From NCBI GenBank assembly GCA_963768835.1, contig CAVYJB010000002.1, forward strand, positions 459,082-523,081: DNA of 64,000 nucleotides, given 5' to 3'. The stretch comes from an uncultured bacterium. GTDB taxonomy: Bacteria > Patescibacteriota > Minisyncoccia > UBA6257 > GWB1-50-10. Positions 8,205 through 58,006 of the stretch are shown one piece after another. The notes beneath the pieces were generated by a model. It was not told where the DNA came from and searched no databases. It saw only the letters and a list, made by a program, of their open reading frames with translations. A program made the position numbers and the translations under genes. The first letter of the stretch is position 1. Each line of letters opens with the position of its first letter.

Positions 8205-8230
8205 AATAGAGGGAAGAAACGGACGAACCC

Positions 8231-9567: not shown

Positions 9568-9612
9568 CCTCTTGCGCTCCGCCCCTCGCTCAAGGTAGGG
9601 TGGAGATACGAT

Positions 9613-10446: not shown

Positions 10447-10546
10447 GGCGTACCAGGCGCCTGGACATTTTTCCTCGATCGCCGGATTCGTGTATAATAG
10501 TCAGGCAAAGGTCGACCACGACCCTATCACTTCAGAATAGAAATCT

Positions 10547-10876: not shown

Positions 10877-10954
10877 AAGGCTGACCATGGGATGGCTCTC
10901 GAGAAAGAGGCCCGTTCGGGATTCCGAGCGGGTCTCTTGTTGTATAATAGGATC

Positions 10955-28100: not shown

Positions 28101-29243
28101 ATGTCAAAAACAGAAGCAAAAAAGGTTTTTGTCGCTATGAGTGGAGGAGTAGATTCCTCTGTTGCGGCGCTGCTGATGAAGAAGGCTGGGTACGACGTGA
28201 CCGGCGTCTTCATGCGTTGCTATAACCTTGACGGTTGTGCCGAGCGGGATGCGGAGGACGCCCGGCGCGTGGCGGACCATCTTGGTATTCCGTTCTACAC
28301 CTTCGATTTCGAGAAAGAATACAAAGCGAAGGTCGTCGAGTATATGATTGCGGGGTATCGGCAGGGGATTACCCCAAATCCGGACGTAATGTGCAATCGT
28401 GAGATAAAGTTCGGGTTATTTCTCACGAAAGCGCTCTCGCTGGGAGCGGAACATGTGGTGACTGGACACTATGTGCGGCTCGGAAAGCACGCTGATCGTT
28501 TTACGCTCCATATCGCGAATGACAAAAACAAGGACCAGAGTTATTTTCTCTGGACGCTTACACAGAAGGAACTCGAGCACTGCCTATTCCCCATCGGCGG
28601 TTATCTGAAAAGTGAGGTACGAGAGATGGCGAGAAAGGCAGAGTTACCGACTGCGGAGAAGAAGGATTCGCAGGGCGTCTGCTTTCTTGGTGATGTGGAC
28701 ATCTTCGATTTCCTGAGAAGGCACATCCCCGAAAAGCGGGGTGATATCGTGGTTGCCCTGCAAGGGATTGGAGGAGTAGTCTACCGCAAGGTGGGGGAGC
28801 ACCGCGGTGTTTGGTTCTATACCATAGGGCAGCGCCACGGTCTCGATCTGCGGGAGCCCGGGAAACTGCTTCGCCGTCGTGGTACAGAACCGACGGGGCC
28901 TTTCTACGTCGCAGCGAAGGATCTCAATACCAACACACTTGTTGTGGCGGAGGGAAACGATGCCCCCGCCCTGTTTCGAACGGAAATCACGCTTGCAGAC
29001 ACGAACTTGATTTCGGGGAATGCTCTGACTTCCGGCTCCAAGCTCTCGGTCCTTGCACGCGTGCGGTATCGGCAACCCGTTTCCGAAGCTATTCTTTCAT
29101 ATTTCAATTCAAACGAATCAATGAAAAATGAAGGTGTGGCAACACTTGTTTTTAAGAAGCCCCAGAAGTTTGTGGCTCCGGGTCAGTCCGCGGTCTTTTA
29201 TGAAGGAAGTGGGGAGATGCTCGGTGGAGGGGTAATCGAATAG
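28101..29243 (+). CDS. mnmA: tRNA-specific 2-thiouridylase
   Basis: PP-loop SGGVDSS, the catalytic Cys motifs NPDVMCN and CFLGD, and overall MnmA layout. Confidence 0.9.
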   Translation: MSKTEAKKVFVAMSGGVDSSVAALLMKKAGYDVTGVFMRCYNLDGCAERDAEDARRVADHLGIPFYTFDFEKEYKAKVVEYMIAGYRQGITPNPDVMCNREIKFGLFLTKALSLGAEHVVTGHYVRLGKHADRFTLHIANDKNKDQSYFLWTLTQKELEHCLFPIGGYLKSEVREMARKAELPTAEKKDSQGVCFLGDVDIFDFLRRHIPEKRGDIVVALQGIGGVVYRKVGEHRGVWFYTIGQRHGLDLREPGKLLRRRGTEPTGPFYVAAKDLNTNTLVVAEGNDAPALFRTEITLADTNLISGNALTSGSKLSVLARVRYRQPVSEAILSYFNSNESMKNEGVATLVFKKPQKFVAPGQSAVFYEGSGEMLGGGVIE

Positions 29244-29357: not shown

Positions 29358-32300
29358 ATGACCGTTCCCAAACCAAAGACTCCACGAACTAGGAAACCCC
29401 GCGTACCGAAAAACCCAACGGTACAACCTACGCCCATCTCAGACGTCTTAGAAGGGGGGCGTCGAACTATTTACCTTAGGGAGCGTTTTCCCCGCCTCGT
29501 CCAGCTCTCGCGCCAGCGTTTTGCAATCCCCATCTTTATTCTTGCCGCGGCGCTCGCGATAGTGGGGACCTATCAAGCGCTCTTCGTACACGCCGATCTC
29601 ACGACCCTTTACCCAAGCTCCTGTCTTGGCGGGTGGCGGTACCCGGGGAACGCGACAGGGAAGCCGGATATTCCCCTCGACATCGTCCCGGATCTGAACC
29701 AGTTTACGACGGCAAACTCCGCCATCTCGGATGGGGGAGAGAGTCCGCTCTTCTGCGGAAGTTTCACGGGCGACACACTCGATCCTGCGGCCACAATCAC
29801 GCATGTACGGCTCCGGTTTTCTCTCGCGGCCTTTTTCGGTTTGGATGCGGTGAAACGTGGAGCCGCCGCCGCGGCGGCGCCTGCCGGGAACGCGCCAGGG
29901 GATGTTCCTCTCCTCATTCTCGATACACGACCGTCGTCCACAGAACCTTCAGCGCTCCCCGAGGAAGGCTCTTCGACACCAACCGAGGAAAGTTTTTCGA
30001 CGTCTTCAACGGGTTCGACAGCCTCGCCACAGGTTCCTTCGGCAAGCTCAGGACAAGCGGATTCGACGGATACATCTCCCACCGCGACGGACACGCCTCC
30101 CACGCCATCAGCCCCTCCGGTCCTCCCGCCACCCAGCGATGCCTCGGGGACACTTCCGTCCGCTGCGCTCCGTACGCTCGCGGAACTCTTCTTCCCTCAT
30201 GCGGCTGCGCAGGAAGCATCTGCTTCAACCCCTTCAACAAATCCACCGCAAGCGGATTCAACAAGCTCACCAGAAGCGGATTCGATTCCTTCGATAGATT
30301 CAGGACAAGCGAACCCACCGCAAGCCGCTTCAGCTCCGAACGACGAAACCTCGACATCCCCAGTGCTTGTCTCACCACCCTTGCCGTCAGTGCCTTCCTC
30401 GACCCCTCCGACCTCCTCGACAAGCTCAGGAGAGGCGCCCTCGGGATCGGCGCCGCCTCTCGAACTTTCCGCATCTTCCACGAACGCCACCGGGACGCAG
30501 AACAGCGAGCTTGTCCCGACCTCTACTTCATCGAGTTCCCCTGAGGAATCTCCGGCTCCGTCTCCCGAGCCTCCCGCCCCCGCTCCTGCGGATACTACCT
30601 CCACCGCCTTCCTCGTGGTTTCCTATACCCTGGACGGCCAAACCTGGCAGCCGCTGGGGTACGTCACTCCCGACAACTGGCAGCAGGCGAACTTCGATGT
30701 TCCTGTCACTTCGACAGATGACATTTCGAAGCTTCAGGTGAGCGTAGAAAGCGTTCTCACGGCGGACCAGCCGCCCGTCGTGTACCTCGACGGCATGGCG
30801 CTTGAGGTGAGCTATGGGCCTCCGCCGGCTCCGAAAAGCCTGACGCCCGAGGATATCAACAAACTGTCGCGCGTCCAGGTGGATGCGAACAAGCTGTTCC
30901 GCGCGGCGAGACACGATTTCCGAGCCGGTGAGACCCCGTCCTTCGAGATCGATATTCCATCGAGCACGGACGCGCTCCTTTCTTCTCCTTCTTCTTCGGT
31001 CTCCACCTCGACCCTGGACGCGCCCGGAGAAGAAACGGTTCCCGGCGCTTCCACAACTCCTTCGGAAGGCGATATTCCATCCTCCTCTCCTGCCAGCGGC
31101 TTTTTGGATTCGCTGCGCAAGCTTGCAGGGATACCGGACGCAGCGGCGCAGACCTCCTCCTCAAGCATCCAGCGCGTGGAGGTCCTAGATATTTTCAATA
31201 ACCCGGTCGATGTCCAGCCGCAGGTCGTTCAGAACGGAAATCAGATTGTGATCAATTTCCCCGCGCCCCCGCGGGCGTTCCGTCCTGGGAGATACCAACT
31301 GGACGTGGAGGTGCTCGTGGGGGATACCGTCTATGCCTCGGAGCAGGACTTCACGTGGGGTATCCTCGCCCTTAACCTCGACCGCTCCATTTTCACACCG
31401 GGGCAGACGGCTTATTTACAAATGGCGGCCTTGAGCGATGAGGGGGACACGCTCTGCAACGCGAACCTCTCCCTCTCAATCACCGATCCGGGCGGAACTG
31501 TCACCCACGTCCCCGTGCAGCCGGGGGCTTCCTGCGGCCCGAACAACGTCACGGACGTTCCGGACTACACAGCTCATTATTCGGTGGGGAACACTACGGG
31601 TGTCTATACCATAACGCTTGAGAATCAGGATACCGGGCACACGATCACCGATACCTTCCAAGTCCAGAATTCCGTTCCGTTCGATGTGGAGCGCATAGGG
31701 GCGACCCGCATCAACCCGTTCATGTCCGACTATCGCATGCGTTTCCGCGTCACGGCGAATCAGGGCTTCGACGGCACCGTGCAGGAGCAGCTCCCGCAGG
31801 GTTTCGCCGTTATTGACCCAGGTGGCGGGGACGTTGCGGCGGGAGATGCCGCGACAATCCTTGGCTGGGAGGTACATCTTGCGGCGGGCCAGAGCATCGA
31901 GCTCTCCTACGTGTATCGGGCTCCCCGCGTGTCGCCGCAGTTCTATCTTCTCGGGCCCGCGCAGTTCATCCACCAAGCGGGCGTTCTGGATAAAATCGTG
32001 GGTTTTCTCTTCTCGAACCTCACGGGGTCCCAACCGCCCGTGGTATTCCAGGAAGCGCGGCAGTGGCAGCTCGCGGCGGACGCTTCCAACCCGGCTACCA
32101 TCCGCCAAGAGATCAATATTCTCGACCATACGTTCACCGCGGGGACCGTCGCCACTTCCTCGATGGAGATCGTGAACCTTAACCCGACGCAGTACGCGAC
32201 CGGGACCAATACCTTCTACTTCGAGATCGTCGCCTCAACGACCGGTGTTGTAGCGACCGCGACCCTGCAGGAAGCGGGGGGGCTTATCGACGCCACCACC

Positions 32301-35300
32301 ACCATCCCTGCGACCGCCACGTCCTCCACTCTCATCCGGACCGCGTTCACCCCCAATGCAGCCACGACGAACTACATTGTCGGTCTCCAAGGGCTCTCCT
32401 CCGGGTCGGCATATCTCCAGGCGGCCCGTATTGTCGTCAAAGAGGCCGCGACGAACTTCACAAACACAGAGACCCAGATCGAGATCGGAAACTACGAAAC
32501 GGGGAAAACGAACACCGCGACTTCAAGCTTGAGCAAACCGAAATACTGGCTGTATACCTCCTCGTCATGGGACGGCACAAAAACTTTCTACGCGGAGGTG
32601 ACGTACCAAACCAGCGCGTCGGTGACTACCTCAAGCATAGCCTCATCCTCGCTCTACACGGCGGCCGGCAACTTTACCTGGACGGCCCCCACAAACATCT
32701 ACGGGACGACGACCATGGAGGCGTGGGGTGCAGGTGGAGGTGGTGGAGGTGTGAACACGTCGAACGAGGGTGGTGGGGGTGGGGGTGGTGGCGCCTATGC
32801 GAGGGTTAACTCCTCCACGACTCCGGCGGGAACCCCGCTCGCGGTGACCGTCGGTGCGGCGGGCGGCGCTGGCGCGAGCTCGGGCGGGACCGGCGGTGTA
32901 GGTTCGACCTCGACCATCGCGACGAGCACGGTCGTGGCACAAGGTGGAAACGGTGGTGTCGGGAACGACGGGGCGGGAGGTACCGGGACGACCACACAGA
33001 GCGTCGGAGATGTGAAATTCGCGGGCGGCACCGGCTCCGCCGGTGCGTCGGCGTCGTACAGTGGTGGCGGTGGCGGTGGCGCAGGTTCAACCGGTGCCGG
33101 AGGCAGCGTGACCGCTACGACGACGGCCGGGCTGGGAACGACCGTGGGCGGCGGGAACGGCGGTGCGGGAAGACTGTCGTCCAGCGCGGGAGTCGGGAAT
33201 AATGGTAACCAGGCAGGCGGCGGTGGTTCCGGAGGGTACAGGGGGTCTTCTACGAACCGCGCCGGGGGCTCGGGAGGACCAGGGGAGGCAAAATTGACCT
33301 ATAGCCTGCTCGTCACGACCACGACGTTCGCCACCACCACTGTCTCTCTTCAGGAAGATAACGGTGCGTTCGGAGGATGGACGGACAAGCTCATCATCCT
33401 CGCTGCCGGTGTGAACACGACCTCGACGCGGGTCCGTGCGGGGCCTTTCACGCCCACGGACGGTCGGCACTACCGTTTGGCGTTTACGAACGCGACCACG
33501 ACCCGTGCCTTCAATATCTACAACGCGAAGATCATTGTGGACCAGGCGGGGAACCCGACGATGCTCGAACCCCAATACCTCCTCGCCAACACCGCGCTCG
33601 GCACGGGGACCTCCCTGCAAGGATTTCAGACCAAGTGGGATTCGACCGAGTGGAGCAATGTGTCGAACGTGTACCTCCACGAGGTGGAGGCCACCTCCTC
33701 CGCGACGTCCACCATCGAGCTGGACACCACCGGAGGGTCGCAGGTCGCCGGTTCCTCCATCGCGAATCCGAGCAACCTCGCGACCTCGACCCTCACGATG
33801 CCCGCGAGCCAGAACTTCGATGTGAAGGCCACCGCAAACTACGGGGGCATTTATGCGGACAGGATCCTGGTGGACGTTTCGTCCATTCTTCCGGTCTTCG
33901 AACAGACCGCGTACCGATGGTACCAGAATGCCAACATCGCTAACCTCCTCTTTGGTGTCGGGGGAGCCACCTCATCGAACCCATCGGCGGGTGATGACGA
34001 GGCGAACGGCATCGCCCTCAACGCCGCCTCGGGGACAATGTACGTGGCGGGGTATGATAATGCCAGCGGCACCGAATGGCGCATCGAAGCCCGCAACCTC
34101 TCCAACGGCTCGCTCATCTACGCGACGAACTCAATCCCGACCCTCAATTCTCCCGAGGCGAACGCCATCGCCATCAATGCCGCTTCAGGAACGATGTATG
34201 TGGTGGGGAGTGCGAATCCTGTTCTCGGGAACCTACAGTGGCGCATCGAAGCCCGCAACCTCTCCGACGGCTCGCTCATCTACGCGACAACCTCGAACCT
34301 AGCTGTGGGCACCAACATCGCGACCGCCATCGCCCTCAACGCCGCTTCGGGGACGATGTACGTGGCGGGGTATGATAATAGTCTTGGCGGCGGTGACCTA
34401 GAATGGCGCATCGAAGCCCGCAACCTCTCCGACGGCTCGCTCATCTACGCGACAACCTCGAACCCAACAGTCAATACAAACGAGGCGACCGCCATCGCCC
34501 TCAACGCCGCTTCGGGGACGATGTACGTGGCGGGGTATGATAGCCCTAGCGTCAGTGAGTGGCGCATCGAAGCCCGCAATCTCTCCAACGGCTCGCTCAT
34601 CTACGCGACGACCACTGCCCCGACCGCGGGTGGTGACCAAGCGACTTCCATCGCCCTCAATACCGCTTCGGGGACGATGTACGTGGCAGGGTCCGAGAAC
34701 AGCACTGGAAAATGGCGCATCGAGGCCCGCAACCTGTCCGACGGCTCGCTCGTCTACCGACAGTCTCTTAGCCTGACAACCTCTGACAAGGCGAAAACCA
34801 TCGCCCTCAATACCGCTTTGGGGACGATGTACGTGGCGGGGTATGACAATTTTGCTGCCGATACGGAATGGCACATTGAGGCCCGTAACCTCTCCGACGG
34901 CTCGCAGGTTTATGGGACAAGCTCGAACCCGACCGCGGGCCTTGACGAGGCGAACGGCATCGCCCTCAACGCCGCCTCGGGAAAGATGTACGTGGCGGGG
35001 TATGACAGCGGTGGTGGCACCGAATGGCGCATCGAAGCCCGCAACCTGTCCGACGGTACGCTTCTCAGCACCATCACCAGTCTTGTCCCCGGCACGCCCC
35101 TCGCGGCGCAGAACACCTCAACGACGCTCGGTACTGTGACGGCCTCGAGCACTTTCCGCCTACGCTTACTCCTCAAGGATTCCGTCGCCACCTCCACCAA
35201 TAGCAAGTTCAACCTGCAGGTCGCGAGCACGACAGTCGGTAACTGCCCCGGTAACTATACTGGGCTGACGTATACTAACGTCCCCACCTCGACGGGCTAC

Positions 35301-38300
35301 ATCACCTACAACACCAATAGTAACATCACTTACGGTACCGTCATCGCCACGAGCACCAACGACCCGACGAACGGCGGCGATACCGTCATCCCAGAGACCT
35401 ACAACGATCAGAATCCATTCTCCGTCGCTTCAGCCATCGGTTTGGGTCAGGACGGTGAGTGGGATTTCTCGCTCGTAAGCAGTAGCTCTATGCCCACGAG
35501 CACCGCTTTTTGCTTCCGAGCGGTCAATACCAGCGGCCAGCTCCTTACGACTACGACCGCTACGCAGATCCCTGAGATCGATACCCCGAATATATCAGCG
35601 GGAAGTACGATCAGTGGCTACCTTTACTCGGACGAGGGGGTGACCCTCACGACCTCCACGGTGAAGATTGCGGTGAACGGGTCCACACAATTTTCCTCGA
35701 CGACGATCGCGAGCTGGTACAACCCCTCCTGGCTATATCGGAAGCTCATCACTATCACGGGTTCCTTGGTCTCGGGCACGCAGACGGGCTTCCCGGTGCT
35801 TGTGAACACCACGGATCCGAACTGGGCCTACACCGGTAATGGCGGGCACATGGGTTCCTCGACGGGATATGACGCGCTCTTTACCGCTGCGGACGGCGTG
35901 ACGAAGCTGAACCATGAGGTGGAGTCCTACAATGCCACGTCGGGCCAGCTCGTCGCGTGGGTGCAGATACCCCAACTCACGGCGAGCACCACCTTCTATA
36001 TCTACTACGGCAACGCGGGGGCCAGCAACCAGCAGAACGCGACCTCCACCTGGGATGTAAACTATGCGGGCGTCTGGCACATGAATGAGGTCGGAGCGGC
36101 GACCACGACCGTGCCCGATTCAACAGGAAACAGAAACACAGGGACAAAGCTTTCCGCGTCCCAACCTTTCGCAACCTCCGGTCCCATTGCGGGCGCCCTC
36201 GCGTTTGACGGAAGCGCGGCGAAGATCACCACACCGTTCACGGCGACAACAACGAGCTTTACGCTTTCGGGATGGGTCTACTCAACGAGTACCGCGACCA
36301 CCGGAACGGTCAATAACGCGATGGCAGGATCGGTAAACAGCTCACGAGGTTTCGCGTTCTGGCCGGAGTGGGGCAACCCGGCGCCGCCGCAACAAGATAA
36401 CCTCATTGTCTACGGCAGTTCCGGGACCGTATCTCTGCAGACCTCCGACAACTTCAACCGGGGCGGCTGGTTCTATTTTGTGGCAACATATGCGAGCCCC
36501 AATGCCACGGTATACAAGAATGGAGCGTTCCTGAACTCGCAGAGTGTCGCTGTCGGTACCACTACAAACGTAGGATTCGACATCGGGGATCGTGGGGATG
36601 GTGCCCATTTCTGGCCCGGTGACATCGCCGAGGTACGACTCTCGACTATCGCACGCTCGGCGGCCTGGATCCTCACCGAGTACAACAACCAGTCTGCGCC
36701 GGGCGTGTTCTACACAGTGGGTCCCGAGCTGGCTTCAGGTGAATACTCATTTACTCTAGGTTCCTCCCTGAACACTGGCGATGTCATCACGGTCTGGATG
36801 GGGAACGGCATCTCGGCGCGCACGGGCGCGACTGTTACCCGCTGGTCAAACTCCCTCTCCACGCTTTCAGGCCTCAACATCTACCAACAGCACCTTATCG
36901 CGCGCCACGAGGACACAGGACCCCTCACCGACGCGAATATTCTCCTCTGCTCGAAGACTGCGGGGAGCGCCTGCTCGGACCCCGACCTCCACTTTGCGGC
37001 AGGCACGAACCCCAGTGACCTCACGGTGGACCCCGACTGGGGCCTCTATCTCTGGGGGGGGAAAACCTTCTCGCCGAACGGGACAGTCACGCTTTCTGCG
37101 GGCACCACCTCTTCGACCTACGGCGGCACTTTGAAGTGGGGGTCCTCGTCCACGATGCTCGCGGCGAGCACCTCCACGCTCTCCATTGGGGGGAGCTGGC
37201 TGAATGCTGTGGATGGGCTATTCTTCTCGTCCTCAGGTCAGGTCACCTTTTTTACAGGGAGTTCCTCACCAGTCTACAGCGTGGATAGCACTGGCAATAG
37301 TTTCCAGAATATCGTGTTTGGGTCTTCGACGCCCGCGACCAGCACTGCCTGGTACAGCGCCTCCTGGCTCCACCGTAAACTTATCAATATAACCGGTTCC
37401 CTCGTATCCGGCACACAAACAAACTTCCCGGTCCTTGTCTCGACCGTCGATCCGAACTTGGCTTACACCGGGAACGGCGGCCACGTGGGGACCTCCACAG
37501 GGAACGATATCCTTTTCACCGCCGCGGACGGCGTGACGAAGCTGAACCACGAGATCGAATCCTACACTTCCTCGACTGGGGCGCTTGTGGCCTGGGTTCA
37601 GGTGCCACAGCTTACCTCGACTACAAGTCTCTATATTTATTACGGCAACGCGGGGGCCAGCAACCAGCAAAACGCGACCTCCACCTGGGACCCCACTTTC
37701 TTGGGGGTTTGGCACTTAGGGGATTCTGCAAGCTCTGCCACCTCGATCGACTCCACCGGGAATGGGTATAGTGCAAAGAAGCAGGCGGTGAACAATCCGG
37801 CCGCGATTTCGACTGGCACTATTGATGGAGCTTCCTCCTTCAATGGCTCAACATCCTTCGCCTCCACATCCAAGCCGCTGAATTTGAATTCCACCACCAC
37901 AATCAGCGCTTGGGTTAAGCGCTACACAACTGGGGCCATCCAGCTCTACTTCACGAAGACAGATGCGCATGCTGGCAACTCCGACTACGCCGTCGGCTTC
38001 GAGGGCCCAGGGGCCAATGTCGACAAGTTCCAGTTTTGGGACAGCAATCTCAATCCCGGAACTCTCTATGCAGCACGTACGATTACCGATACCAATTGGC
38101 ACCAGCTTGTAGTAGTCACTGACTTCCATTGGTATGCAAGTTTCTATGTTGATGGCGCATTCGTGAACACAGGGACATACGATGGGAATAATAGCCAAAC
38201 CATCCATTCTTATCCCACTCACATCGGAGACGCGTTCGGGAACGCTCCTGATCTTTATTGGATGAATGGCGCGGTCGACGAACTTCGCGTCGCTTCCTCC

Positions 38301-41300
38301 CCCCGCTCGGCGGCCTGGATTCTCACCGAGTTTAACAATGAGTCCTCACCAGGCACCTTCTTAACGGTGAAGCCGGAGGATAGCTACCCGGGCGGTGTTT
38401 GGAACATCACGAGTGATTTAAATGCGAGCGGGAATCTTGCGGTTGTGACCGGGACGGTGGTGGGCTCCGCGAACGTCCTCATCGCGGGTGGGAACGCTAC
38501 GAGCAGCGGCGGCACGCTTAGCTTCGCAGGCGGTACCTTCACGCTTGCGCACCCCGGTTTCTACGGTGGTCTCCAGCCGTGGAGTCTCTACAACTTCATA
38601 GCTAGCTCCGGGGCCTCCGGCATCACCACAACCACTGGCACGGGCACCACAACGGTTACGGGCGCCTTCACTATCTGGCCGGGCTCCGGGTTCAACGCCG
38701 CGACCTCCACCTTTGTCCTTACAGCGATCTCCGGGGCGCCTTTCGTTCCCCAGGGCACCTTCCTGCCCGCCACCTCGACGGTCCTCTTCACGGGTGACGG
38801 CAACATTACAATCGCCTCCACGACCTACTATAATCTCACCCTCAGCCCAACCTTGACGGCAAGCCGAGCTTATAGTTTGGGAGGGCCGGGCATTATTCAG
38901 TTCATCCAAGCCACCTCGACGGTCACAACTACCACGGCGGCCTCTGTCACTTTCCCTTCGCCGGTAGGGGCAGGCGACACCATTATCGGCAGCATGATCG
39001 AGCCATCCGGTAGTACGGTCCAAGTCGGTGACACGCGGGGGAATTCCTACACCATTGCCGTTGGATCCTTCCCCGATCCCTTGGGCGACCTGATCTATAT
39101 GTTCTATGCCCCGAATGTGGCGGGCGGGCCAACCACGGTTATTGCCACGAGCTCTCTTGCCTCCCCGGCCTTCAATGAGCTCAACATTACCGAGTATAGC
39201 GGCCTCAATACCGTGAGCTCGTTGGACGCCATCTCCACTGGCACCAGCGTCGGCGGTGGTGTGAACCCCACAACTGCCACCACGACCATCACCTCTGCGA
39301 AGGAGCTCATCTGGGCCTACGGCCCGGATCTCGGTAGCGGCCTCAGTGCGGGGGCGAGTTTCACACCTCGGCTCGTCACGCAGGGCGATACCGTCGAAGA
39401 CAAAATCGTGTCCACTGCGGGATCCTACAGCGCCTACATGATTGCCACCACTACGAGCAACTGGGCCATCGTGATGGGGACTTTTAAGACGGGCCCAGGA
39501 TCCGGTATCCCTGGTGCGACAACAATCAACAACAATTTCCTTATCAACCCCACCTCCTCGAGTGCTCTGAACCTCGATGTAACTCTTGCCTCCACAACCA
39601 CCGTTCTTGGTGGGACGACCGTAATGAGTGGCGGTTCCTCCACTTCCACCCTCGACACGACGCCCTCAAACTCTTCCCTCACGACCGGGAATCTTACAAT
39701 CCAGGCGGGGGACGGTATGAATGCGAACGGTTCAAACGTGACCTTGACCGGCATCAACTCTCCTCTCGTTAATAACGGCCTCCTTTCCGTCGGCACCTCC
39801 ACCTTCATATACACCGGCGCCGGGGCCACGGTTGTTAACGCAAGCACCACGTACTGGAACCTTACGCTCCAGCCCGTATCCTCAGGCGCCGCTTTCGGGT
39901 ACCAGATGGCAACAGGCACCCCACTCACAGTTTCAAGCACGCTGAATGTGAACGGGTCAGGCGATGAAGGCGCAAACTGGACCCAGGCGACCTCGAGCGC
40001 CGCGTGGGCCGGGCGGAAATCCGAACCCGCCCTCGTCTATCACGGAAAGCTCTGGCTCCTCGGGGGGCAGCTATCGGGGCCTGTGGCGACCTCGAGCGTC
40101 TGGTCCTCCTCGGACGGTGTGAACTGGACCTTTATGGGTTACGCGCCTTGGACTGCGCGCTACTCGGCGGCGGGGCTTGTGTATAAGGACAAGATGTGGA
40201 TCATGGGCGGTACAGACCAATCCGCGGCGCGGAAGAATGATGTCTGGTGGTCCACCGACGGCGTGAACTGGACCCAGGCCACCTCGTCCGCGACCTGGGC
40301 GGCGCGTGAAGCCCCCCGCGCCGTCGTGTTCAAGGGCTACATGTGGATTGTGGGGGGGTACATCGGCTCTGTCACCCATGATGTCTACTATTCGTCGAGC
40401 GGCATCGCATGGGCTACAGCGACGTCGAGCGCGAACTGGTCTATCCGCTACTACAACGCGTTGGTCGTCAAGGACGGGAAGATGTGGGTGTACGGAGGGT
40501 ACGGAGGCGTTGATGACTGTGCGAGCGGTTCCCGCAACGATGTCTGGTGGTCCTCCGACGGCGTGAACTGGACCCAGGCGACTGCAAGCGCTCCCTGGGC
40601 CTGCCGATGGCAGCTTTCCTACGGTGTCTACGACAACAAGCTGTGGGTGGTGGGAGGGTACGATAGCTCGGCCGGCTATAGGACTGATGCTTGGTACTCG
40701 CCGGACGGAGTGAACTGGACAATGGCCACGAGTGGGACTGCAACGAAAACAAATGACACGCCGCTTTTAGCTTTCCAGAACCGCCTCTGGAGAATCGGCG
40801 GCGAAAATGGATCGTATTTGAACAATGTCTGGTACACACCTTCCTCGACCCTCACTGTCACGCTCGGAGCTACCACGACCGTTGCCTCGACGACGAACGT
40901 AAATGCGGGCATCCTCGATGCAACTTCCTTAAACTACCCGCTGACGACCATGAATCTCGCAGTCGGGCCCGGTGGCACCCTCACTGGTCGCGGCTCAGCG
41001 CTCCTCGCGACGGGGGATGTCAGTATCAATGGGTACGGTCGTGACAACGGTGGCATCCTCCAATCTACGACCAACACCCTCACTATCCAGGGCAACTACA
41101 CCCAAACTGGCACCTTCGCAAGCGGCACGACAGGAACCGTTCTCTTCAACGGAAGCGCTCAGCAGGTTCTAGCGGGGGAGATGACGGGCGGGAACGCGTT
41201 CGGCCTCCTCACCTTCGCGAACAACTCCGGAGGCGATCCTTCTTCCACCCCCTCCCTCATCGTTTCCTCGTCGCTCGACGCCGCAACTTCCACCATCACG

Positions 41301-42644: not shown

Positions 42645-42709
42645 TGATGCTCTGGAGACTACCATCTCCCAATCCTGTGGATAATTTAGCATTCAGAACG
42701 ACTTTGGTA

Positions 42710-42718
42710 TGGTATACT
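42710..42718 (+). promoter_or_regulatory. extended -10 promoter element TGGTATACT upstream of the small WxL-like gene
   Basis: TTTGGTATGGTATACT. The same TGTGGTATACT element recurs upstream of the paralog at 48193-48201. Confidence 0.4.
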
Positions 42719-42798
42719 TATCCAGTAGCGAGGCATTTCCTCTCCAATCACCAAAATTCAAGAAAAGAAAAGGTCGGAACGACAGTTTGTATGAAAAA

Positions 42799-43497
42799 AT
42801 GAGGAATCACATTAATTTAGAGACCGTTATAGGAGGGATTGCGGTTGTAGGCATGGCCGCGTTTATGTTCAGTGGAGTAGCGGGGTCGTTCTGGTCCGTT
42901 TTGGACATCCAGCACGCTTTTGCCGGCACTTCCACTTCGACCAACCAGACCATTAACCTGACCGTGAACCAGGTTATCACGCTTTTTCTTTCCACAACGA
43001 CGCTCACGCTGCCATCCCTCACGCCTGGCATCCCGGTTTCAGGGAATGCATCGGCAACCGTCACGACAAATGCCGACCAGGGTTTCCAGCTTCTCTTCAA
43101 TCGCGTGAATAACCCGACCTCGACCCTAACCTACGGCGCCACCTCGACCTTCCCGGATGCGACGAACACCTGGAACCCGACGTTGTTCGGTGGTGTTGGT
43201 AACGCAACAGACACGACCCGCACAGTGGTTCAGTCGGACCTTTCTTTCCGCGTGGCATCCTCTGGAACCACCGGTTCGCTCCTGAACACTTCGTACTGGG
43301 GTTCGGTTGACACGGACGGTGTTGGGCAGGCGGAGTATGCAGGTTTCCCGACCACAAGTCAGGTCGTTGCTTCGACAAGTACTTATACCGGTGTCTCGCA
43401 GATCATCACCTATAAGGTACGTGCGGACGCTCCGCTGACGCAACGATCCGGTACTTATTCCGGTCAGATTACCATCACAGCGACGGCGCAGCCATAG
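42799..43497 (+). CDS. small secreted WxL-like (SCPU/WxL-like) surface protein, member of a local paralog family
   Basis: Signal anchor followed by AGTSTSTNQTINLTVNQVITLFLSTTTLTLPSLTPGIPVSGNASATVTTNADQGFQL. The C-terminus RSGTYSGQITITATAQP* matches the C-terminus of the giant protein (YTGQVTITALANP*) and of 48226..48896 (YTGQITITATALP*). Start chosen downstream of the promoter element. Confidence 0.6.
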   Translation: MRNHINLETVIGGIAVVGMAAFMFSGVAGSFWSVLDIQHAFAGTSTSTNQTINLTVNQVITLFLSTTTLTLPSLTPGIPVSGNASATVTTNADQGFQLLFNRVNNPTSTLTYGATSTFPDATNTWNPTLFGGVGNATDTTRTVVQSDLSFRVASSGTTGSLLNTSYWGSVDTDGVGQAEYAGFPTTSQVVASTSTYTGVSQIITYKVRADAPLTQRSGTYSGQITITATAQP

Positions 43498-43685
43498 TTT
43501 TACCCCGCTGGGGTTTCTTCTTGGGAAGAGCCTGTGACTCTCTCGACCTCAGCGGGTGCGTCGCCAACCGCTCGTGTAGTTCTCTGTCCCGTTTCTTTGG
43601 TAGATTGACAGAGAGCAAGAGTGGGGCCACAATTTCTCCTGAAGGAGTTCTCCTGCCTGAGGGGAGCGATGCTACCATAAATGTA

Positions 43686-44591
43686 ATGAAGAGGAAAGTA
43701 TTCAGCCTTTCGGTTCTTGTTCTGTCAGTCGTGTTCGGTATGTTGCTTTTTCCATCCGCAGGTTTTGCGCAGGTGGGTATTTCTTTGTTCCCGATTAAGT
43801 TTCGCGTGACGATAAACCCGGGCGATACGTACTCCGACACGGTCACGGTCATGAACCCGAACAGCTTTCCAATTGGTGTCCAGCCAGAGATCGAGAACAT
43901 CGGTGGGGGCGATGAGGGCGCCATTACGCTCATTGCGGGCGATGCGCCCTACGGCCTCATGTCATGGATCCAGATGACCAAGGACCCGTTCACCCTAGCG
44001 CCGAACGAGCGACGCCAGGTACCTTTTAGCATCGTGATTCCCAAAGATGGTGAACCCGGTGGTCACTACGGAGCTATCCTTTTCCGAGCCATCCAACCCA
44101 CGAATGGCACTTCCACTCAAAGTGGTGTAGGAGTCTCGGGACGCGTCGGGAGTGTCATCTTGGTAGAGGTTCCTGGAGCGACCCAAAAGACCGGAGAACT
44201 CTACAATTTTACGGGCCCGTCTTATATGTCTCACGGACCCGTCACGTTCACTTTTCATGTAAAAGACACAGGAAACACTCACTTTGATCCCACTGGTGCG
44301 GTGACAGTGAGCGGATGGTTCATGGCGGACGCGGTGCTTCCTTTTGAGTCGCGCGTCGTCTTCCCGGGGTACTCGCGGACTTTCACGGCCACATGGCCGT
44401 CCCGCTATGCTTTTGGCCCGCTCACAGCAAAGGTGGAGGTACAAATGCCGGATGGAGGTACACAGGTAGCTACCCTGTCCTTCTTCGCGTTTCCATGGCA
44501 GGAAGGCCTTATCGTAGTGGTGGGCCTTTCCGCTCTGTGGTTTGTGGCTCGCTTTTTCAAACGAAAGTTCAAGATCGTGAAGGTTTCCTAG
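43686..44591 (+). CDS. CscA-like (DUF916/DUF3324-like) secreted protein with C-terminal transmembrane anchor
   Basis: Signal peptide (MKRKVFSLSVLVLSVVFGMLLFPSAGFAQ), beta-rich Ig-like domains (FPIKFRVTINPGDTYSDTVTVMNPNSFPIG ... HYGAILFRAIQP ... GRVGSVILVEVPG) and a C-terminal TM plus basic tail (LIVVVGLSALWFVARFFKRKFKIVKVS). This mirrors WxL-interacting proteins of Firmicutes csc clusters. The assignment is inference. Confidence 0.5.
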   Translation: MKRKVFSLSVLVLSVVFGMLLFPSAGFAQVGISLFPIKFRVTINPGDTYSDTVTVMNPNSFPIGVQPEIENIGGGDEGAITLIAGDAPYGLMSWIQMTKDPFTLAPNERRQVPFSIVIPKDGEPGGHYGAILFRAIQPTNGTSTQSGVGVSGRVGSVILVEVPGATQKTGELYNFTGPSYMSHGPVTFTFHVKDTGNTHFDPTGAVTVSGWFMADAVLPFESRVVFPGYSRTFTATWPSRYAFGPLTAKVEVQMPDGGTQVATLSFFAFPWQEGLIVVVGLSALWFVARFFKRKFKIVKVS

Positions 44592-44605
44592 TGCCCTACG
44601 TATGA

Positions 44606-45097
44606 ATGCGTATCTTGCACCCTTTTGCTCGTTCTTTTCTCGCATTTTTTTCTGCGCTCGTTCTTTCGATTGAGTTCCCCGCGCTGCCGATAGCCCGTGC
44701 GCAGATTTTGACGACTTCGAGTTCGCAGACCGTGACTGTTGAGGTCTGCCCCTGCGAGATTCCTCCACCTCCTCCACCGCCCCCCCCACCGCCTCCCAGT
44801 GGAGGCGGTGGGGGTGTTTTCGGCGGCACTCTTCTGTCACCGCTTCCCCCCGCGCCGGCGCGCCCTATACCCTCGAAGCGCATTCTCCGGTCGGTGGATT
44901 TCAACCACGATGGCAAGGTGGACATTATCGACCTCTCCATCCTTCTCTACTACTACAACCGTTTTAGGCCAGGGGTCGACCGTGCGGATGTTGATATCAA
45001 CGGTGATGGGGTCGTGGATCTAACCGATGTCTCTATCTTTCTCTATTATTGGGGCGGCTCCGGCGTCATCGAGGTGGCGAGTGGAACAGGAAATTGA
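44606..45097 (+). CDS. secreted dockerin-domain protein with poly-proline linker
   Basis: Signal peptide, P12 plus G5 linker, then two Ca-binding dockerin repeats (DFNHDGKVDIIDLSILLYYY and DINGDGVVDLTDVSIFLYYW). Confidence 0.6.
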   Translation: MRILHPFARSFLAFFSALVLSIEFPALPIARAQILTTSSSQTVTVEVCPCEIPPPPPPPPPPPPSGGGGGVFGGTLLSPLPPAPARPIPSKRILRSVDFNHDGKVDIIDLSILLYYYNRFRPGVDRADVDINGDGVVDLTDVSIFLYYWGGSGVIEVASGTGN

Positions 45098-45099
45098 CC

Positions 45100-46020
45100 A
45101 TGAGAAAGTTTTTTCCAATATTTATTGGATCCCTCGCGCTCCTTTGTGCGCCCGCTCTCGCGTCTGCGCGAGTAAGTTTCTCGTTCGAAGGATACACGCC
45201 GCCGGGACTTTCCGCCGCGGATTTTGGCGTTCGCATCCTCGTGGATTCAGATGAACCCGTAAATGCCTTTGATCTTATCGTGTCCTACCCAGTGGGGCTT
45301 GCAAAGCTTACCGGTATCGATACCAGCCGCTCCATTGCGGATCTCTGGCAGAGCTCTCTCACACCACCCGATGGGAACCAAGTCCCGCTCGTGGGCGCGG
45401 CTACCAAGCCGTTCATCGGGACCCACGGGGAGTTCGCGACCCTTATCTTTAATGGTCTGCGGGTTGGCTCAAGCACGCTCCATTTTGTCCAGGCGGATGT
45501 CTATCGTGCGGACGGAAAGGGGACGCTGGCCGAGGTGGAGACACAGGATCAGAGCCTTGCGCTCTACGCCGTGCAGGTGGAAACAACCTCCACAGAATCC
45601 GTGAGCGAGGCAAGCGGTGTAGGCCAGGTGCAAAATGGACCCACACCCGCAGGAGCGGGCCCCACTATCGGCGACCTTCGCATTGTGGACAACTCCTTCG
45701 CACCCGGAGAAAAACTTCTCATCTTTACGGTGGGAGAAACTAATGGCGTTCTCCGCCGTACAGCGGTCCGCACCCGTTCTTGGCTTTTTTGGAGCGCTTG
45801 GCAAGAGGCGCGGAACCCCTTTCCTGTTCCATCTGGCGCTTGGGCAGTGGATTTCGCCGCTGTCGACAGCCTTGGGAACGTAGCTGAGCGCGTGTTGTAT
45901 CGTTCCGACATTATATTGGAGAAGGGAGGCCTCGTCCTCGCGGTTATCATTCTCCTTTTGCTCGCTCGATACTATTTTGTGCGGAGGAGAAGAAAGCGCG
46001 CGCTCCAAAGTGTACAATAA
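45100..46020 (+). CDS. cohesin-domain protein with C-terminal transmembrane anchor
   Basis: Signal peptide followed by a cohesin-like beta-sandwich (FSFEGYTPPGLSAADFGVRILVDSDEPVNAFDLIVSYPVGLAKLTGID ... GEFATLIFNGLRVGSSTLHFVQADVY) and a C-terminal TM (LVLAVIILLLLARYYFVRRRRKRA). The ATG at 45100 sits 2 nt after the dockerin gene stop. Confidence 0.55.
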   Translation: MRKFFPIFIGSLALLCAPALASARVSFSFEGYTPPGLSAADFGVRILVDSDEPVNAFDLIVSYPVGLAKLTGIDTSRSIADLWQSSLTPPDGNQVPLVGAATKPFIGTHGEFATLIFNGLRVGSSTLHFVQADVYRADGKGTLAEVETQDQSLALYAVQVETTSTESVSEASGVGQVQNGPTPAGAGPTIGDLRIVDNSFAPGEKLLIFTVGETNGVLRRTAVRTRSWLFWSAWQEARNPFPVPSGAWAVDFAAVDSLGNVAERVLYRSDIILEKGGLVLAVIILLLLARYYFVRRRRKRALQSVQ

Positions 46021-46025
46021 GAAGC

Positions 46026-48137
46026 ATGGTGGGTTCCTTGCACTGTAGGGGGTGGATGCCCCGCACCGCAGCGCTGGCGGTTGTCTTTGCGCTCGCCGGA
46101 TTCACGATGGCGCCTTGCGCGTCCGCACAAAGCGACGTCAGCCCGGCATCGCTCTATGTGAGCCCTTCCACAGGAACCTTCACAGTGGGGAGCACTTTCA
46201 CGGTCTCCTTCTATCTGAACACCGGCGGTCAATCGGTGAACGCGCTTCAGGCAAACGTAATTTTCCCGCCGGACATGCTGCAGGTGGTCTCGCCCACCAC
46301 CGGGACCTCTTTCGTTCAATTCTGGACCTCGCAGCCGAGCTATTCGAACGGGGACGGGACCCTTTCGTTTCAAGGAGCGGTCGCCGCGCCGGGCATTAAT
46401 ACCTCGGCAGGCCTCATTGCCACCGTCACCTTCCGGGTCACGGCTCTGGGGACCGCGGTCATTAAATTTGCAGATAATTCCCGCGTCCTTTTGAACGACG
46501 GCCAGGGAACGAACGTTCTGGGCCAGACGAGCGGGGCTATCTATTCGCTTGCACTGCCGCCGCCTGCCGGTCCGATCGTGACCTCGCCCACAGATCCTGA
46601 CCAACAAAAATGGTACTCGAATTCCGATGTGTCCTTCGAGTGGCAACCGCAGGATGCTGCAGTCACGGGCTACAGCTATATCCTGAGCCATAACCCCTCC
46701 GACATTCCCGACGATATCGCGGAAGGGGACCAGACTTCCGTGTCCTATCCTAATCTCCCCGATGGCATCTATTATTTTCATATCAAGGCGCTCCGGAACG
46801 GAAGCTGGGGAGGCGTCACTTCTTATTCGGTGAAAATCGATGCCACGCCGCCCGCGACGTTTCCCATTGAGGTCTCGCCGGGTACGCGGACGACCCTCAG
46901 GAGTCCTATCATCTCGTTCATCACCACGGACAATCTCTCGGGCATCGACCACTATGAAGTGAAGGTGCTTCCGCTCACGCCCCTCCCGCCGTCCACGGGG
47001 AGCAACGCACCTTCGAGTGCCATCCAGCCTTTCTTCATCGAGGCCACAAGCCCCTATGTGCCGCAGCTCGATCTCGGGTCTTACGACATTATCGTTCGTG
47101 CTGTGGACCGCGCGGGGAATGAAACAGATTCGAAGACCCACATTGATGTGGTGACGCCGCTCTTCGAGGTGGTGAGCGGCGAGGGGCTTCGGGTGAACAA
47201 CACCTTCACCATTCCTTGGCTCGGTCTCTGGGCTACTCTCGCGGCTTTGGTGCCCCTTCTTTCTTATTTCGCATGGAAAGTGCGTCGTTCCCATCGCTTG
47301 ATACAGCTTAAGCTTGCGGAAGGCGCCCTCTCCGATCCGGTGATACGAAAACGTCTCGAGGAATTAAAAGCGAAGCGGCAGGAATATGCCAAGAAGGCGC
47401 TTCTCATATTTTTTGCCTTAGCATTCAGTCTCACGCTCGGGATTGGCTCGGTCCGCGCGGCCGCGACCTCCTCCATTTCTACCATTTCGCCGCCTCTCGT
47501 CACGCTCTATGGAAACAATATTTCAGACGCGGAGCTTCTCTACATCGGTGGGAAGTCCGAAGAGCTCGGTGCCACGGTCGAAGTCTATCTCCAGAACACC
47601 CACACGGGCGAGACGCTCTCTGAGGAGGCGGTGGTGGATCCCCAAGGCGAATGGTTCTACTCGTACCCCAAATTCCTCCAGGCAGGGAAGTATCTCCTTT
47701 GGACCCAGGTCAAGGCAGGCGACCAATTCTCGCCGCCGAGCCCGCAGCTCGAGGTGAACGTCGAGCCCACCGCGTTCCAGTTCGGCGCTTCCCGTGTGAG
47801 TTATGAACTTATTTATCTTGCGATCTCCGTCCTCCTCGCGCTTGTGATCCTCGGGTTCGTCAGTTTCATTCTCTACCACTTCGCTCAAGGGCGGCGGAAG
47901 CGCGCGCTCCTCGAGCGGGAGCTCCAGGAGGCGGAGGAGTCTATCCGGCGGGGGTTCGCCGTGCTCCGGCGCGACATTGAAGCGGAACTCGAGGTTATCC
48001 ACCGCGCAAAACTGCAGGGGGAACTTGCTATCGACGAGCGGGTACGTGAAGAAAAGCTTATCCGTGACCTCGACCTCGTACGGCGCTACATCGGGAAGGA
48101 GGTTTGGGATCTTGAGCGGTTCCGGCACATAGAGTAA
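46026..48137 (+). CDS. multi-pass membrane protein with N-terminal cohesin domain, Ig/Fn3-like domain and coiled coils
   Basis: The cohesin signature LYVSPSTGTFTVGSTFTVSFYLNTGGQSVNALQANVIFPPDMLQVVSP ... GLIATVTFRVTALGTAVIKFADNSRVL is followed by a beta-sandwich domain and three predicted TM helices separated by charged coiled-coil segments. Confidence 0.55.
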   Translation: MVGSLHCRGWMPRTAALAVVFALAGFTMAPCASAQSDVSPASLYVSPSTGTFTVGSTFTVSFYLNTGGQSVNALQANVIFPPDMLQVVSPTTGTSFVQFWTSQPSYSNGDGTLSFQGAVAAPGINTSAGLIATVTFRVTALGTAVIKFADNSRVLLNDGQGTNVLGQTSGAIYSLALPPPAGPIVTSPTDPDQQKWYSNSDVSFEWQPQDAAVTGYSYILSHNPSDIPDDIAEGDQTSVSYPNLPDGIYYFHIKALRNGSWGGVTSYSVKIDATPPATFPIEVSPGTRTTLRSPIISFITTDNLSGIDHYEVKVLPLTPLPPSTGSNAPSSAIQPFFIEATSPYVPQLDLGSYDIIVRAVDRAGNETDSKTHIDVVTPLFEVVSGEGLRVNNTFTIPWLGLWATLAALVPLLSYFAWKVRRSHRLIQLKLAEGALSDPVIRKRLEELKAKRQEYAKKALLIFFALAFSLTLGIGSVRAAATSSISTISPPLVTLYGNNISDAELLYIGGKSEELGATVEVYLQNTHTGETLSEEAVVDPQGEWFYSYPKFLQAGKYLLWTQVKAGDQFSPPSPQLEVNVEPTAFQFGASRVSYELIYLAISVLLALVILGFVSFILYHFAQGRRKRALLERELQEAEESIRRGFAVLRRDIEAELEVIHRAKLQGELAIDERVREEKLIRDLDLVRRYIGKEVWDLERFRHIE

Positions 48138-48192
48138 AGGTTTCGGAGCTTGGGAATTATCCACCGTCGGGGGTCCTTTGGGTACCCGATTG

Positions 48193-48201
48193 TGGTATAC
48201 T
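48193..48201 (+). promoter_or_regulatory. extended -10 promoter element TGGTATACT upstream of the WxL-like paralog
   Basis: TTGTGGTATACTCTAGG. Identical core to 42710-42718. Confidence 0.4.
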
Positions 48202-48225
48202 CTAGGTATAAATTCTCTTTCTGGT

Positions 48226-48896
48226 ATGCATAAGAGATTCGAGATTGGAACGGTTGTTATGGGATGTCTTCTCCTCGGAGGGATGAGCTTCCTTTTCTTC
48301 GGAGGTGGCTTTTTGGTATCTCTTTTTGCGCCAAACGTCCAAGCTGGTACTTCTACTTCTACCAATCAGACGGTGAGCGTCACCGTGAACCAGACTATTA
48401 CGCTCACGCTTGCTTCCACGACGCTTACGCTCCCGACTCTCACGCCCGGTACTCCGGTCTCGGCGATGTCGTCAGCAACCGTCGTGACAAATGCCGACCA
48501 GGGCTTCCAACTTTCTTCAGCCGCGTGAACAACCCGACCTCGACCCTAATCTACGGCGCCACCTCCACCTTCCCGGATGCGGTCGCGTTCGACGGGACGA
48601 CCAATACGACGACCGACACGACCGCAATCGGCGCGAACCTTCATTTCCGCGTGGCGTCCTCGGGGACACCAGGCGGCCTTTACAGCTCGAGTCTCTGGGG
48701 ACCGAACGACTCGGACGGGATTGGGGAACGCGGAGTACTCGGGTTTTCCGACTACAAGCAAAGTCGTCGCCTCGACGAGCACCTACGCTGGTGTCTCGGA
48801 GACCATCACGTACAAGGGCGTGCGAACGCGCCAGGCACGCAGCGGTCCGGTAACTATACCGGCCAGATTACGATTACCGCGACGGCGCTACCGTAG
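48226..48896 (+). pseudogene. WxL-like small secreted protein paralog interrupted by three apparent 1-nt frameshifts
   Basis: Matches ORF 42799..43497 across three reading frames: MHKRFEIG...NADQGFQL in frame A to 48528, RVNNPTSTLIYGATSTFPDA... in frame B, and a middle AEYSGFPTTSKVVASTSTYAGVSETITYK segment in frame C. It returns to ...GNYTGQITITATALP*. One frameshift maps to a 1-nt deletion in CTTCTCTTC>CTTTCTTC. Confidence 0.6.
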
Positions 48897-57813: not shown

Positions 57814-58006
57814 CCCTACCTGTTCCAAGGATTTCGAGTTAGAACTTATATACTTATCCACACCTTGGTCGGGAACTTGACATTTCAAGGGGTTTCCGCA
57901 AGAATGAGCTTGCACACTTTGGACCCGTGTGAGGACGGGTTCGAAGAATTCTCGAAATTTTATTAGGTCGAAACCAAAAACAAATTTAAATAGAAACAAT
58001 ACACTA

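Follow-up and report, generated by a model that had tools for sequence, protein, structure and literature searches.

A gene cluster of a Patescibacteria genome that probably represents a WxL/Csc-type surface-display system with a cohesin-dockerin module

The stretch of DNA analyzed here (64,000 nucleotides of contig CAVYJB010000002.1 from assembly GCA_963768835.1, hereafter the window) belongs to a bacterium of the candidate phyla radiation (CPR)/Patescibacteria, as indicated by the names of its database relatives (Paceibacterota, Minisyncoccia, and Jorgensenbacteria). Between the housekeeping genes mnmA (positions 28101 to 29243) and aspS (49014 to 50414), it contains seven consecutive open reading frames (ORFs) on the plus strand, which an earlier note on this DNA had described as a co-oriented cell surface locus, and all seven were recovered at the positions given there (Table 1). 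They encode, in this order, a giant multidomain protein, a small secreted protein, a membrane-tethered protein with two immunoglobulin (Ig)-like domains, a dockerin protein, a cohesin-like transmembrane (TM) protein, a larger cohesin protein, and a second small protein. The last four intact genes are spaced by 2 to 14 nt, and gaps of about 150 to 190 nt lie 3' of the giant gene and 3' of the small gene. Over positions 37686 to 47486, the window shows 100% identity to an independent assembly of run ERR11594402.

Table 1. Features of the surface protein locus (positions are those of the window)
Feature	Position	Strand	Size and basis
Giant protein gene	29358-42644	+	4428 aa, one unbroken ORF
Hydrophobic signal/anchor segment of giant	29520-29591	+	aa 55-78, after Lys/Arg/Pro-rich leader; read from translation
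About seven tandem 52-aa repeats in giant ('EWRIEARNLSDGSLIY...ALNAASGTMYVAGYD')	33991-35056	+	Tandem Repeats Finder
Two DUF2341 and concanavalin-A-like lectin (Laminin_G_3) modules of giant	35715-38363	+	Pfam, two stretches per family
Kelch-type beta-propeller region of giant	39969-40847	+	Kelch_1, E=2.3e-12
Probable WxL-like domain at C-terminus of giant	41610-42641	+	aa 4085-4428, last 344 residues
Inserted domain within the probable WxL-like domain of giant	~41766-42299	+	~180 aa, between the two BLASTP-matching parts
Small secreted protein gene	ORF 42709-43497, likely start 42799 (start of database protein)	+	232 aa
Weak terminator-like hairpin just after small gene	43502-43524	+	5-bp G+C stem, T-rich tail; consensus match only
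WxLIP-like gene (third)	ORF 43521-44591, likely start 43686	+	301 aa
Dockerin protein gene	44606-45097	+	163 aa
Cohesin-like TM protein gene	ORF 45049-46020, likely start 45100	+	306 aa
Cohesin protein gene	46026-48137	+	703 aa
Second small paralogue	48178-48896 (paralogue match 48226-48896)	+	spread over three frames

At the N-terminus of the giant protein, a basic leader precedes a single hydrophobic segment, and a Ser/Thr/Pro-rich stretch comes next. Its Pfam matches comprise Laminin_G_3 (80 bits), DUF2341 (63 bits), Kelch_1 (35 bits), and Gly_rich_2 (32 bits), and an MG2-like Ig domain was found below the Pfam cut-off with 27.5 bits; the borders of the DUF2341/Laminin_G_3 modules were set from motif positions. 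The tandem repeats have a period of 156, 6.8 copies, and 73% matches, and the Kelch region, which also shows a weak match to the Attractin/LZTR1 propellers, contains repeated 'DG.NW...W..R' units in translation. A catalytic domain was not detected in the giant by Pfam. The proposed homology of its C-terminus with the small protein was borne out, since the C-terminal half aligned by BLASTP over 124 aa with 40% identity (E=3e-16) and the N-terminal strands aligned separately (E=0.004). The giant ends with '...YTGQVTITALANP', as do the large members at related loci.

The small protein consists solely of a signal peptide and the beta-rich domain that it shares with the giant. It is identical to the database protein P0001, and none of its 36 relatives in a word-indexed protein database carries a Pfam domain. 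A family profile built from 33 relatives and scored against 1.84 billion cluster representatives matched 392 proteins at E<=1e-3, of which 201 also passed E<=1e-10. In the listed representatives, the shared domain is always located at the extreme C-terminus of proteins that range from 200 to 4200 aa, so that it is a C-terminal module common to domain-only and large multidomain proteins. Among the conserved stretches of the family is an N-terminal alternating strand, TSTSTxQTINLTVNQTITLSLS, and it is accompanied by the conserved blocks LTPG, TTNxxxG-[YFW]-x-[LVI]-x-V-x-R, FPD, FRV, and WWG and by the C-terminal block Y-x-G-x-I-T-[YFI]-T-A-x-x-N-P. In the AlphaFold2 (AF2) model of the small protein (predicted local distance difference test [pLDDT] score of 69.5, predicted template modeling [pTM] score of 0.57), this N-terminal strand of the monomer is predicted with low confidence. 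A search of the family profile against PDB sequences gave no match.

On sequence grounds, the third gene product is a membrane-tethered homologue of WxLIP (DUF916/CscA) with two Ig-like domains. It has a signal peptide, the two Ig-like domains, a C-terminal TM helix that is conserved in the alignment, and the basic tail KRKFKIVKVS, which directly follows the helix at residues 271 to 294 of the AF2 model. The copy in the window scored 23.5 to 24 bits against PF06030 (WxLIP_PGBD, formerly DUF916) at a cut-off of 27.3, orthologues that are 56 to 59% identical over the full length reached 32.6 to 34.9 bits, and distant relatives reached up to 49 bits; all 40 aligned relatives matched PF06030 at E<=1. 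An hhalign comparison with five DUF916+DUF3324 proteins from plasmids of Firmicutes yielded an E value of 6e-15 and a probability of 98.4 over 293 columns, extending through the second domain and the TM helix. The family profile also matched EfmWxLIP1 in the PDB (E=1e-5). The likeness to CscA proteins noticed in the initial reading of the DNA thus stood, by way of the orthologue scores for PF06030 and the hhalign result.

In the dockerin protein, the signal peptide is followed by a short alternating strand (SQTVTVEV), and a poly-Pro/Gly linker connects to the dockerin at the C-terminus. Its assignment was confirmed by a Dockerin_1 (PF00404) score of 35.2 bits, above the cut-off of 22.9, and the translation shows two Ca-binding dockerin repeats, 'DFNHDGKVDIIDLSILLYYY' and 'DINGDGVVDLTDVSIFLYYW'. 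Two cohesin proteins had been claimed. The claim held for the 703-aa protein (Cohesin, PF00963; 34.2 bits at a cut-off of 24.1), which carries a signal peptide, the cohesin, Ig-like domains (Y_Y_Y with 27 bits and Big_13), and three hydrophobic segments at aa 396-417, 458-476, and 595-617; its C-terminal tail, read by eye, is probably a coiled coil and looks cytoplasmic. The 306-aa protein, whose C-terminus consists of a TM helix followed by the tail RRRRKR, gave no Pfam match. It aligned with the cohesin region of the 703-aa protein by BLASTP (E=7e-5) and recovered the same 60 ORFs as the latter in an iterated search, so that it qualifies as cohesin-like through its 703-aa paralogue only.

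Positions 47214 to 48137 (aa 397-703) of the larger cohesin gene encode the second TM segment, a further extracellular Ig-like region (Ca_tandemer-like, E=9e-5), the third TM segment, and the tail. The 703-aa protein may be a fusion because its orthologues at the closest loci are mostly shorter (about 460 to 680 aa).

A scan with the motif GGHY[GA]A[IV][LF]F, in which each species was represented by one genome, revealed the WxLIP-like protein in 154 genomes, and 80 loci were kept. Nearly all of the genomes are labeled Patescibacteria; the few labeled Bacillota, Dehalococcoidales, Gammaproteobacteria, or Nanoarchaeia may reflect binning. The expected synteny in relatives was found for both halves of the cluster. 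At the closest loci, numbering about 20, the order was always a large protein with the shared domain (203 to 1588 aa), a small protein, and the WxLIP-like protein. At distant loci, a protein of about 350 aa is encoded directly upstream of the WxLIP-like gene, and its C-terminal half is homologous to the shared domain (hhalign E=6.8e-16); the large proteins upstream carry this domain too. The order WxLIP-like, dockerin, cohesin-like TM, and larger cohesin protein was present in 32 sources including the window, which fall into two divergent groups. At these 32 loci, the dockerin is always extreme C-terminal, and every dockerin protein has an alternating strand directly after the signal peptide (e.g., LQLNVTVVYPP and QVVITATVPE). 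Because the arrangement recurs in many other genomes, it is more than chance.

Many distant CPR loci (L024, L025, L031, L036, L040-L042, L044, L046, L048, L050, L056, L060, and L062-L064) carry not one WxLIP-like gene but two or three in tandem. A locus labeled Nanoarchaeia (DPANN archaea; L034, positions 8174 to 10969) encodes a WxLIP-like protein with a hidden Markov model (HMM) E value of 5e-68, and the neighboring gene product shows a weak match to the shared domain (E=7e-6). This locus represents either a cross-domain spread or a mis-binned CPR contig.

The earlier note had proposed that the shared domain corresponds to WxL with replaced tryptophans, and the replacement was evident across 150 family representatives, with Y, F, or W at the first motif position (45%, 28%, and 23%, respectively) and Y, F, or I at the second (59%, 17%, and 11%). 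Both positions are aromatic or hydrophobic and in register with the Trp of WxL. The CPR counterpart of the first motif of Firmicutes WxL proteins, V-x-D-x-R-G-x-x-x-G-W-x-L-x-V, is G-[YFW]-x-L-x-V, and in the Firmicutes C-terminus, L-x-V-P...Y-x-T-T-L-T-W-x-L-x-D-x-P, the spacing from Y to P is equal to that of the CPR family. In hhalign comparisons, the CPR profile gave no significant match with a profile of 11 Firmicutes WxL sequences (E=0.1) and a probability of 6.6% with a single WxL sequence. Small proteins of Actinobacteria, which match Firmicutes WxL with a probability of 95 (E=3.6e-8), showed a weak direct match to the CPR family (E=0.02). With a merged Firmicutes and Actinobacteria WxL profile, the E values were 1e-3 in local mode (score of 28.8) and 1.2e-4 in global mode (score of 24.5). 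These scores are about 8 standard deviations above those of 40 block-shuffled control profiles (local, 13.6+-2.0 with a maximum of 17.4; global, 4.7+-2.3 with a maximum of 10.6), and the reversed profile scored 10.8 and 2.2, respectively. The alignment is collinear over four motif blocks with both WxL motifs in register, including the terminal Y-x3-[LI]-T-[WYFI]-x-[LA]-x3-P. A solved WxL domain was not found when the WxL profile was compared with the PDB. Because gene order, motif spacing, and profile-profile comparison agree, the shared domain is probably WxL-like, i.e., a remote homologue of WxL and not a demonstrated member of this family.

On balance, we favor the view that the locus is the CPR (Paceibacterota) version of a WxL/Csc surface-display cluster in which a cohesin-dockerin module replaces LPXTG/sortase anchoring. 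The parallel to the Firmicutes clusters, drawn from the start, is supported by gene order, WxLIP homology, and the profile-profile link to WxL. According to the published model, WxLIP binds and stabilizes WxL at the cell wall, and the other domains face the host (PMC9772566 and PMC10599100). By analogy, the WxLIP-like protein would bind and stabilize the shared domain and thereby hold the giant on the cell surface, with the lectin-like, Kelch, and repeat domains pointing outwards, and the small protein might serve as a partner or spacer subunit. The dockerin protein would take the place of the small LPXTG protein (CscD) of the Firmicutes clusters, its short N-terminal strand could engage one of the Ig-like partners, and the dockerin would plug into the membrane-anchored cohesins, resulting in a non-covalent anchoring instead of a sortase-mediated attachment. 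This proposed replacement of the LPXTG/sortase anchor is inferred from the conserved order and from the plan that the dockerin proteins share with LPXTG proteins. Adhesion to a host cell or to a polymer surface is the likely predicted role, which the domain content makes plausible.

Several observations weigh against this interpretation. The assignment of the small proteins to Pfam WxL, as envisaged in the earlier note, failed: PF13731 was not matched at E<=1 by any of the seven window proteins, 33 family members, or 10 CPR neighbors. NCBIfam scans were likewise without a match of the small protein to a WxL model, and no database relative carries WxL among its precomputed Pfam domains, even in a search with the 53-sequence family alignment. 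An HMM built from 11 Firmicutes WxL proteins matched no CPR ORF, and the motif positions in the window itself hold Phe and Ile instead of Trp in the small protein (G-F-Q-L and I-T-I-T-A; G-Y-T-L and V-T-I-T-A in the giant). The hhalign probability for the WxL link is merely 21 to 28%. The model of the small protein, which is of moderate confidence, had no PDB match in Foldseek at E<=0.001 (best E=0.01). The DUF3324 part of the expected CscA architecture was not recovered, as PF11797 was matched by no WxLIP-like protein scanned, neither that of the window nor its relatives. Consensus scanning placed promoter-like and terminator-like matches within the gene block. Even in Firmicutes, what WxL clusters do biochemically has been established only in part. 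Finally, the comparable genes SEML1_0628, SEML1_0627, and SEML1_0626 of the CPR bacterium Southlakia epibionticum were non-essential in co-culture transposon sequencing (PMC10633639).

Two alternative explanations deny the proposed complex or its function. The seven genes might encode separate envelope proteins that are adjacent but do not act in a complex, and the gaps of about 150 to 190 nt after the giant and the small gene, with their promoter-like and terminator-like matches, would fit such a loose assemblage. We regard it as improbable, as order and orientation are kept across CPR lineages whose WxLIP-like proteins are merely 24 to 60% identical to that of the window, large and small members share one domain at every locus, and the homologous Firmicutes partners have been reported to bind each other (PMC9772566 and PMC10599100). 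The genuine cohesin and dockerin domains and the lectin-like Laminin_G_3 modules of the giant could also recall a cellulosome-like complex, in which the cohesin-dockerin genes assemble polysaccharide-degrading enzymes and the neighboring genes are incidental. However, none of the seven proteins contains a glycoside hydrolase, lyase, or esterase domain, the only dockerin protein has 163 aa and lacks a catalytic part, and at about 30 loci synteny ties the dockerin and cohesin genes to the WxLIP-like gene. This explanation is very improbable and was rejected due to the absence of enzymes from the seven proteins.

A third possibility refines the favored WxL/Csc reading without excluding it, namely, that the small protein is a pilus- or TasA-like subunit complemented via its N-terminal strand in a donor-strand fiber. 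In such a fiber, the giant would be the tip adhesin, the WxLIP-like protein would work as a PapD-like chaperone or base tethered to the membrane, and the dockerin protein, as a strand-bearing adaptor, would fix the fiber base to the membrane cohesins. This possibility fits the alternating strand TSTSTxQTINLTVNQTITL, which is better conserved than any other stretch of the family and was modeled with low confidence in the monomer, and a similar strand starts all dockerin proteins. In Southlakia, the WxL-like protein was assigned to a Csu-subunit and the DUF916-like protein to a Caf1M-chaperone ECOD domain, and AF2 work on Firmicutes predicts that a strand of WxLIP is inserted into WxL (PMC10599100). 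Ig-like sandwiches, however, resemble many things; SCPU (PF05229) was not matched in Pfam and NCBIfam scans of the window proteins, 33 family members, and 10 CPR neighbors, and DUF4402 stayed below its cut-off of 25.2 bits (E=0.026 for the window paralogue and at best 0.057 among the family members). Moreover, Pfam scans of the seven window proteins, which did not include a search aimed at ushers, revealed no usher family, and there is no report of WxL proteins forming fibers. We consider the fiber rather unlikely, and the pilin-like reading of the small protein, suggested by its model, is a lead and not a result.

An even more tentative extension would be that WxL-type systems in CPR, and by extension in Firmicutes and Actinobacteria, are usher-less chaperone-subunit donor-strand machineries. 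If this doubtful proposal were true, the role of a pilin-fold subunit with an open groove would fall to the WxL-like domain and that of a membrane-tethered PapD-like chaperone or anchor to WxLIP, and the small subunits would polymerize or cap the giant tip adhesin through their conserved N-terminal strands. In CPR, the strand-bearing dockerin adaptor would plug the base of the assembly into the membrane cohesins, which would result in a host-attachment fiber specific to ultra-small episymbiotic bacteria.

CPR bacteria account for a considerable part of bacterial diversity, and their apparent way of life is one of attachment to host cells. Apart from type IV pili, little is known of the structures with which they attach. 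The current study connects a gene cassette conserved in CPR with a mode of surface display that is open to experiments in Gram-positive bacteria, and the link to WxL display yields concrete hypotheses on which protein anchors which. Under the favored reading, the locus would extend the WxL/WxLIP system far outside Firmicutes, would show that the name-giving tryptophans are dispensable, and would be a case of modular exchange, in which cohesin-dockerin pairing on membrane proteins has taken over the anchoring from sortase/LPXTG. In its fold, WxLIP resembles pilus chaperones, just as its partner domain resembles donor-strand subunits, and these likenesses point to a mechanism that can be tested for the family as a whole.

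The second small paralogue, which is read through three frames, was correctly recognized as a frameshifted homologue, and its frameshifted state may be an artifact. It shares 82% nucleotide identity with the small gene, from which it differs by three 1-nt indels, and all three pieces match the family HMM. Further downstream, fusA (EF-G) is split over two frames (55703 to 57409 and 57406 to 57813), and tuf (EF-Tu) starts near 57980 but stays in frame for only about 40 codons, so that the affected stretch spans positions 55703 to 58225. Frameshifts in these essential genes point to indel errors in the assembly; therefore, the paralogue may be intact in the cell, its breaks being assembly errors and not signs of a pseudogene. 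An intact paralogue would give the cluster two small members, as in many Firmicutes clusters.

With respect to expression, a promoter-like match (10 of 12 positions) is located at 43605 to 43633, 5' of the WxLIP-like gene, and together with the hairpin after the small gene (Table 1) it could allow the small subunit to be expressed above the downstream genes. A few genes upstream of the cluster, positions 24255 to 26180 encode an ATPase resembling type IV secretion coupling proteins (TrwB_AAD_bind, E=1.1e-12; TraG-D_C) whose C-terminal tail is long and Pro/Arg-rich. Two related contigs of Paceibacterota (L001, 1842 to 7780, and L002, 1 to 5073) have, ahead of the large protein, six genes in a conserved run, all without Pfam matches (about 210, 514 to 583, 244, 169, 175, and 142 to 146 aa), and the ATP synthase operon follows the cluster. 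The six-gene run is absent from the window, where mnmA is located directly upstream.

Full-text literature searches retrieved no paper that joins DUF916 or WxL with CPR, nor one that reports cohesin-dockerin genes beside them. The CPR cassette with its cohesin-dockerin module thus appears to be undescribed in the literature searched, although the cluster type is visible in automatic annotation, and the supposed novelty of the combination is limited solely by unlabeled rows of a supplementary table. These rows, from Wang et al. 2023, are undiscussed in the text of that paper and concern Southlakia epibionticum (Saccharibacteria, CPR), whose cluster comprises the large, Fn3-rich SEML1_0628; the 188-aa SEML1_0627, with a WxL domain protein as best Foldseek match (TM score of 0.85) and a Csu-subunit ECOD domain; the 316-aa DUF916-like SEML1_0626 with a Caf1M-chaperone ECOD domain; and the LPXTG-like SEML1_0625, whose disruption gave a growth advantage (PMC10633639, supplement). 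The order of large, WxL-like, and DUF916-like protein is the same as in the window, matched by order and structure-based annotations and not by alignment, but the Southlakia cluster continues with the LPXTG-like protein and that of the window with dockerin and cohesin genes. An essential dockerin protein of Southlakia, SEML1_0315, has a different genomic context outside the DUF916 cluster and was dismissed as a counterpart.

Cellulosome anchoring has in common with the window a type I-like dockerin with two Ca-binding repeats and cohesins on cell-bound proteins. It differs in that the cluster of the window involves no enzymes, its cohesins are held by TM helices and not by SLH domains or sortase, and its dockerin sits on a small adaptor protein whose N-terminal strand is conserved. 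Regarding chaperone-usher pili (Csu, CFA/I, and type 1) and TasA fibers, the predicted structure of the small protein would most resemble donor-strand subunits and that of the WxLIP-like protein the two-domain chaperones of the PapD type; unlike in these pili, the chaperone-like protein of the window is membrane-tethered, and SCPU is not matched. In Actinobacteria, plasmids of Arthrobacter, Curtobacterium, and Streptomyces encode a small secreted protein immediately upstream of a DUF916 gene (L089, 7227 to 8804, and L092-L094). Most of these small proteins are annotated as hypothetical and one as a WxL domain protein. They have lost the second Trp ('Y.ATITHSV'), and their N-terminal 'TLSLTAP..DLG...PG' resembles the CPR stretch 'ITLSLS..L.LP.LTPG'; the fetched regions are two-gene pairs without a large member or cohesin-dockerin genes.

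The closest known systems are the WxL/Csc clusters of Firmicutes, i.e., cscA-D of Lactiplantibacillus plantarum, loci A-C of Enterococcus faecium, and the elr operon of E. faecalis, and more than 91% of the known WxL sequences originate from this phylum (PMC9772566), whereas the host of the window is a CPR bacterium. Both cluster types encode a large protein with the shared domain at its C-terminus, a domain-only small protein, and then WxLIP, which follows the same plan of two Ig-like domains, a TM helix, and a basic tail. In the loci fetched from Enterococcus, Bacillus, and Lactiplantibacillus, the order is a large protein, in some cases an LPXTG protein, one to three WxL proteins, and WxLIP. 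The window cluster differs from the Firmicutes clusters in that the shared domain fails Pfam WxL and has Trp replaced by Tyr, Phe, or Ile, its WxLIP-like protein has no DUF3324 detectable by Pfam, and its large member comprises 4428 aa compared to the reported 500 to 1000 aa. In place of an LPXTG protein or sortase, the window cluster contains the dockerin protein and two membrane-anchored cohesin proteins, and the small LPXTG proteins of the Firmicutes loci have, like the CPR dockerin proteins, a signal peptide, a short strand, a linker, and an anchor.

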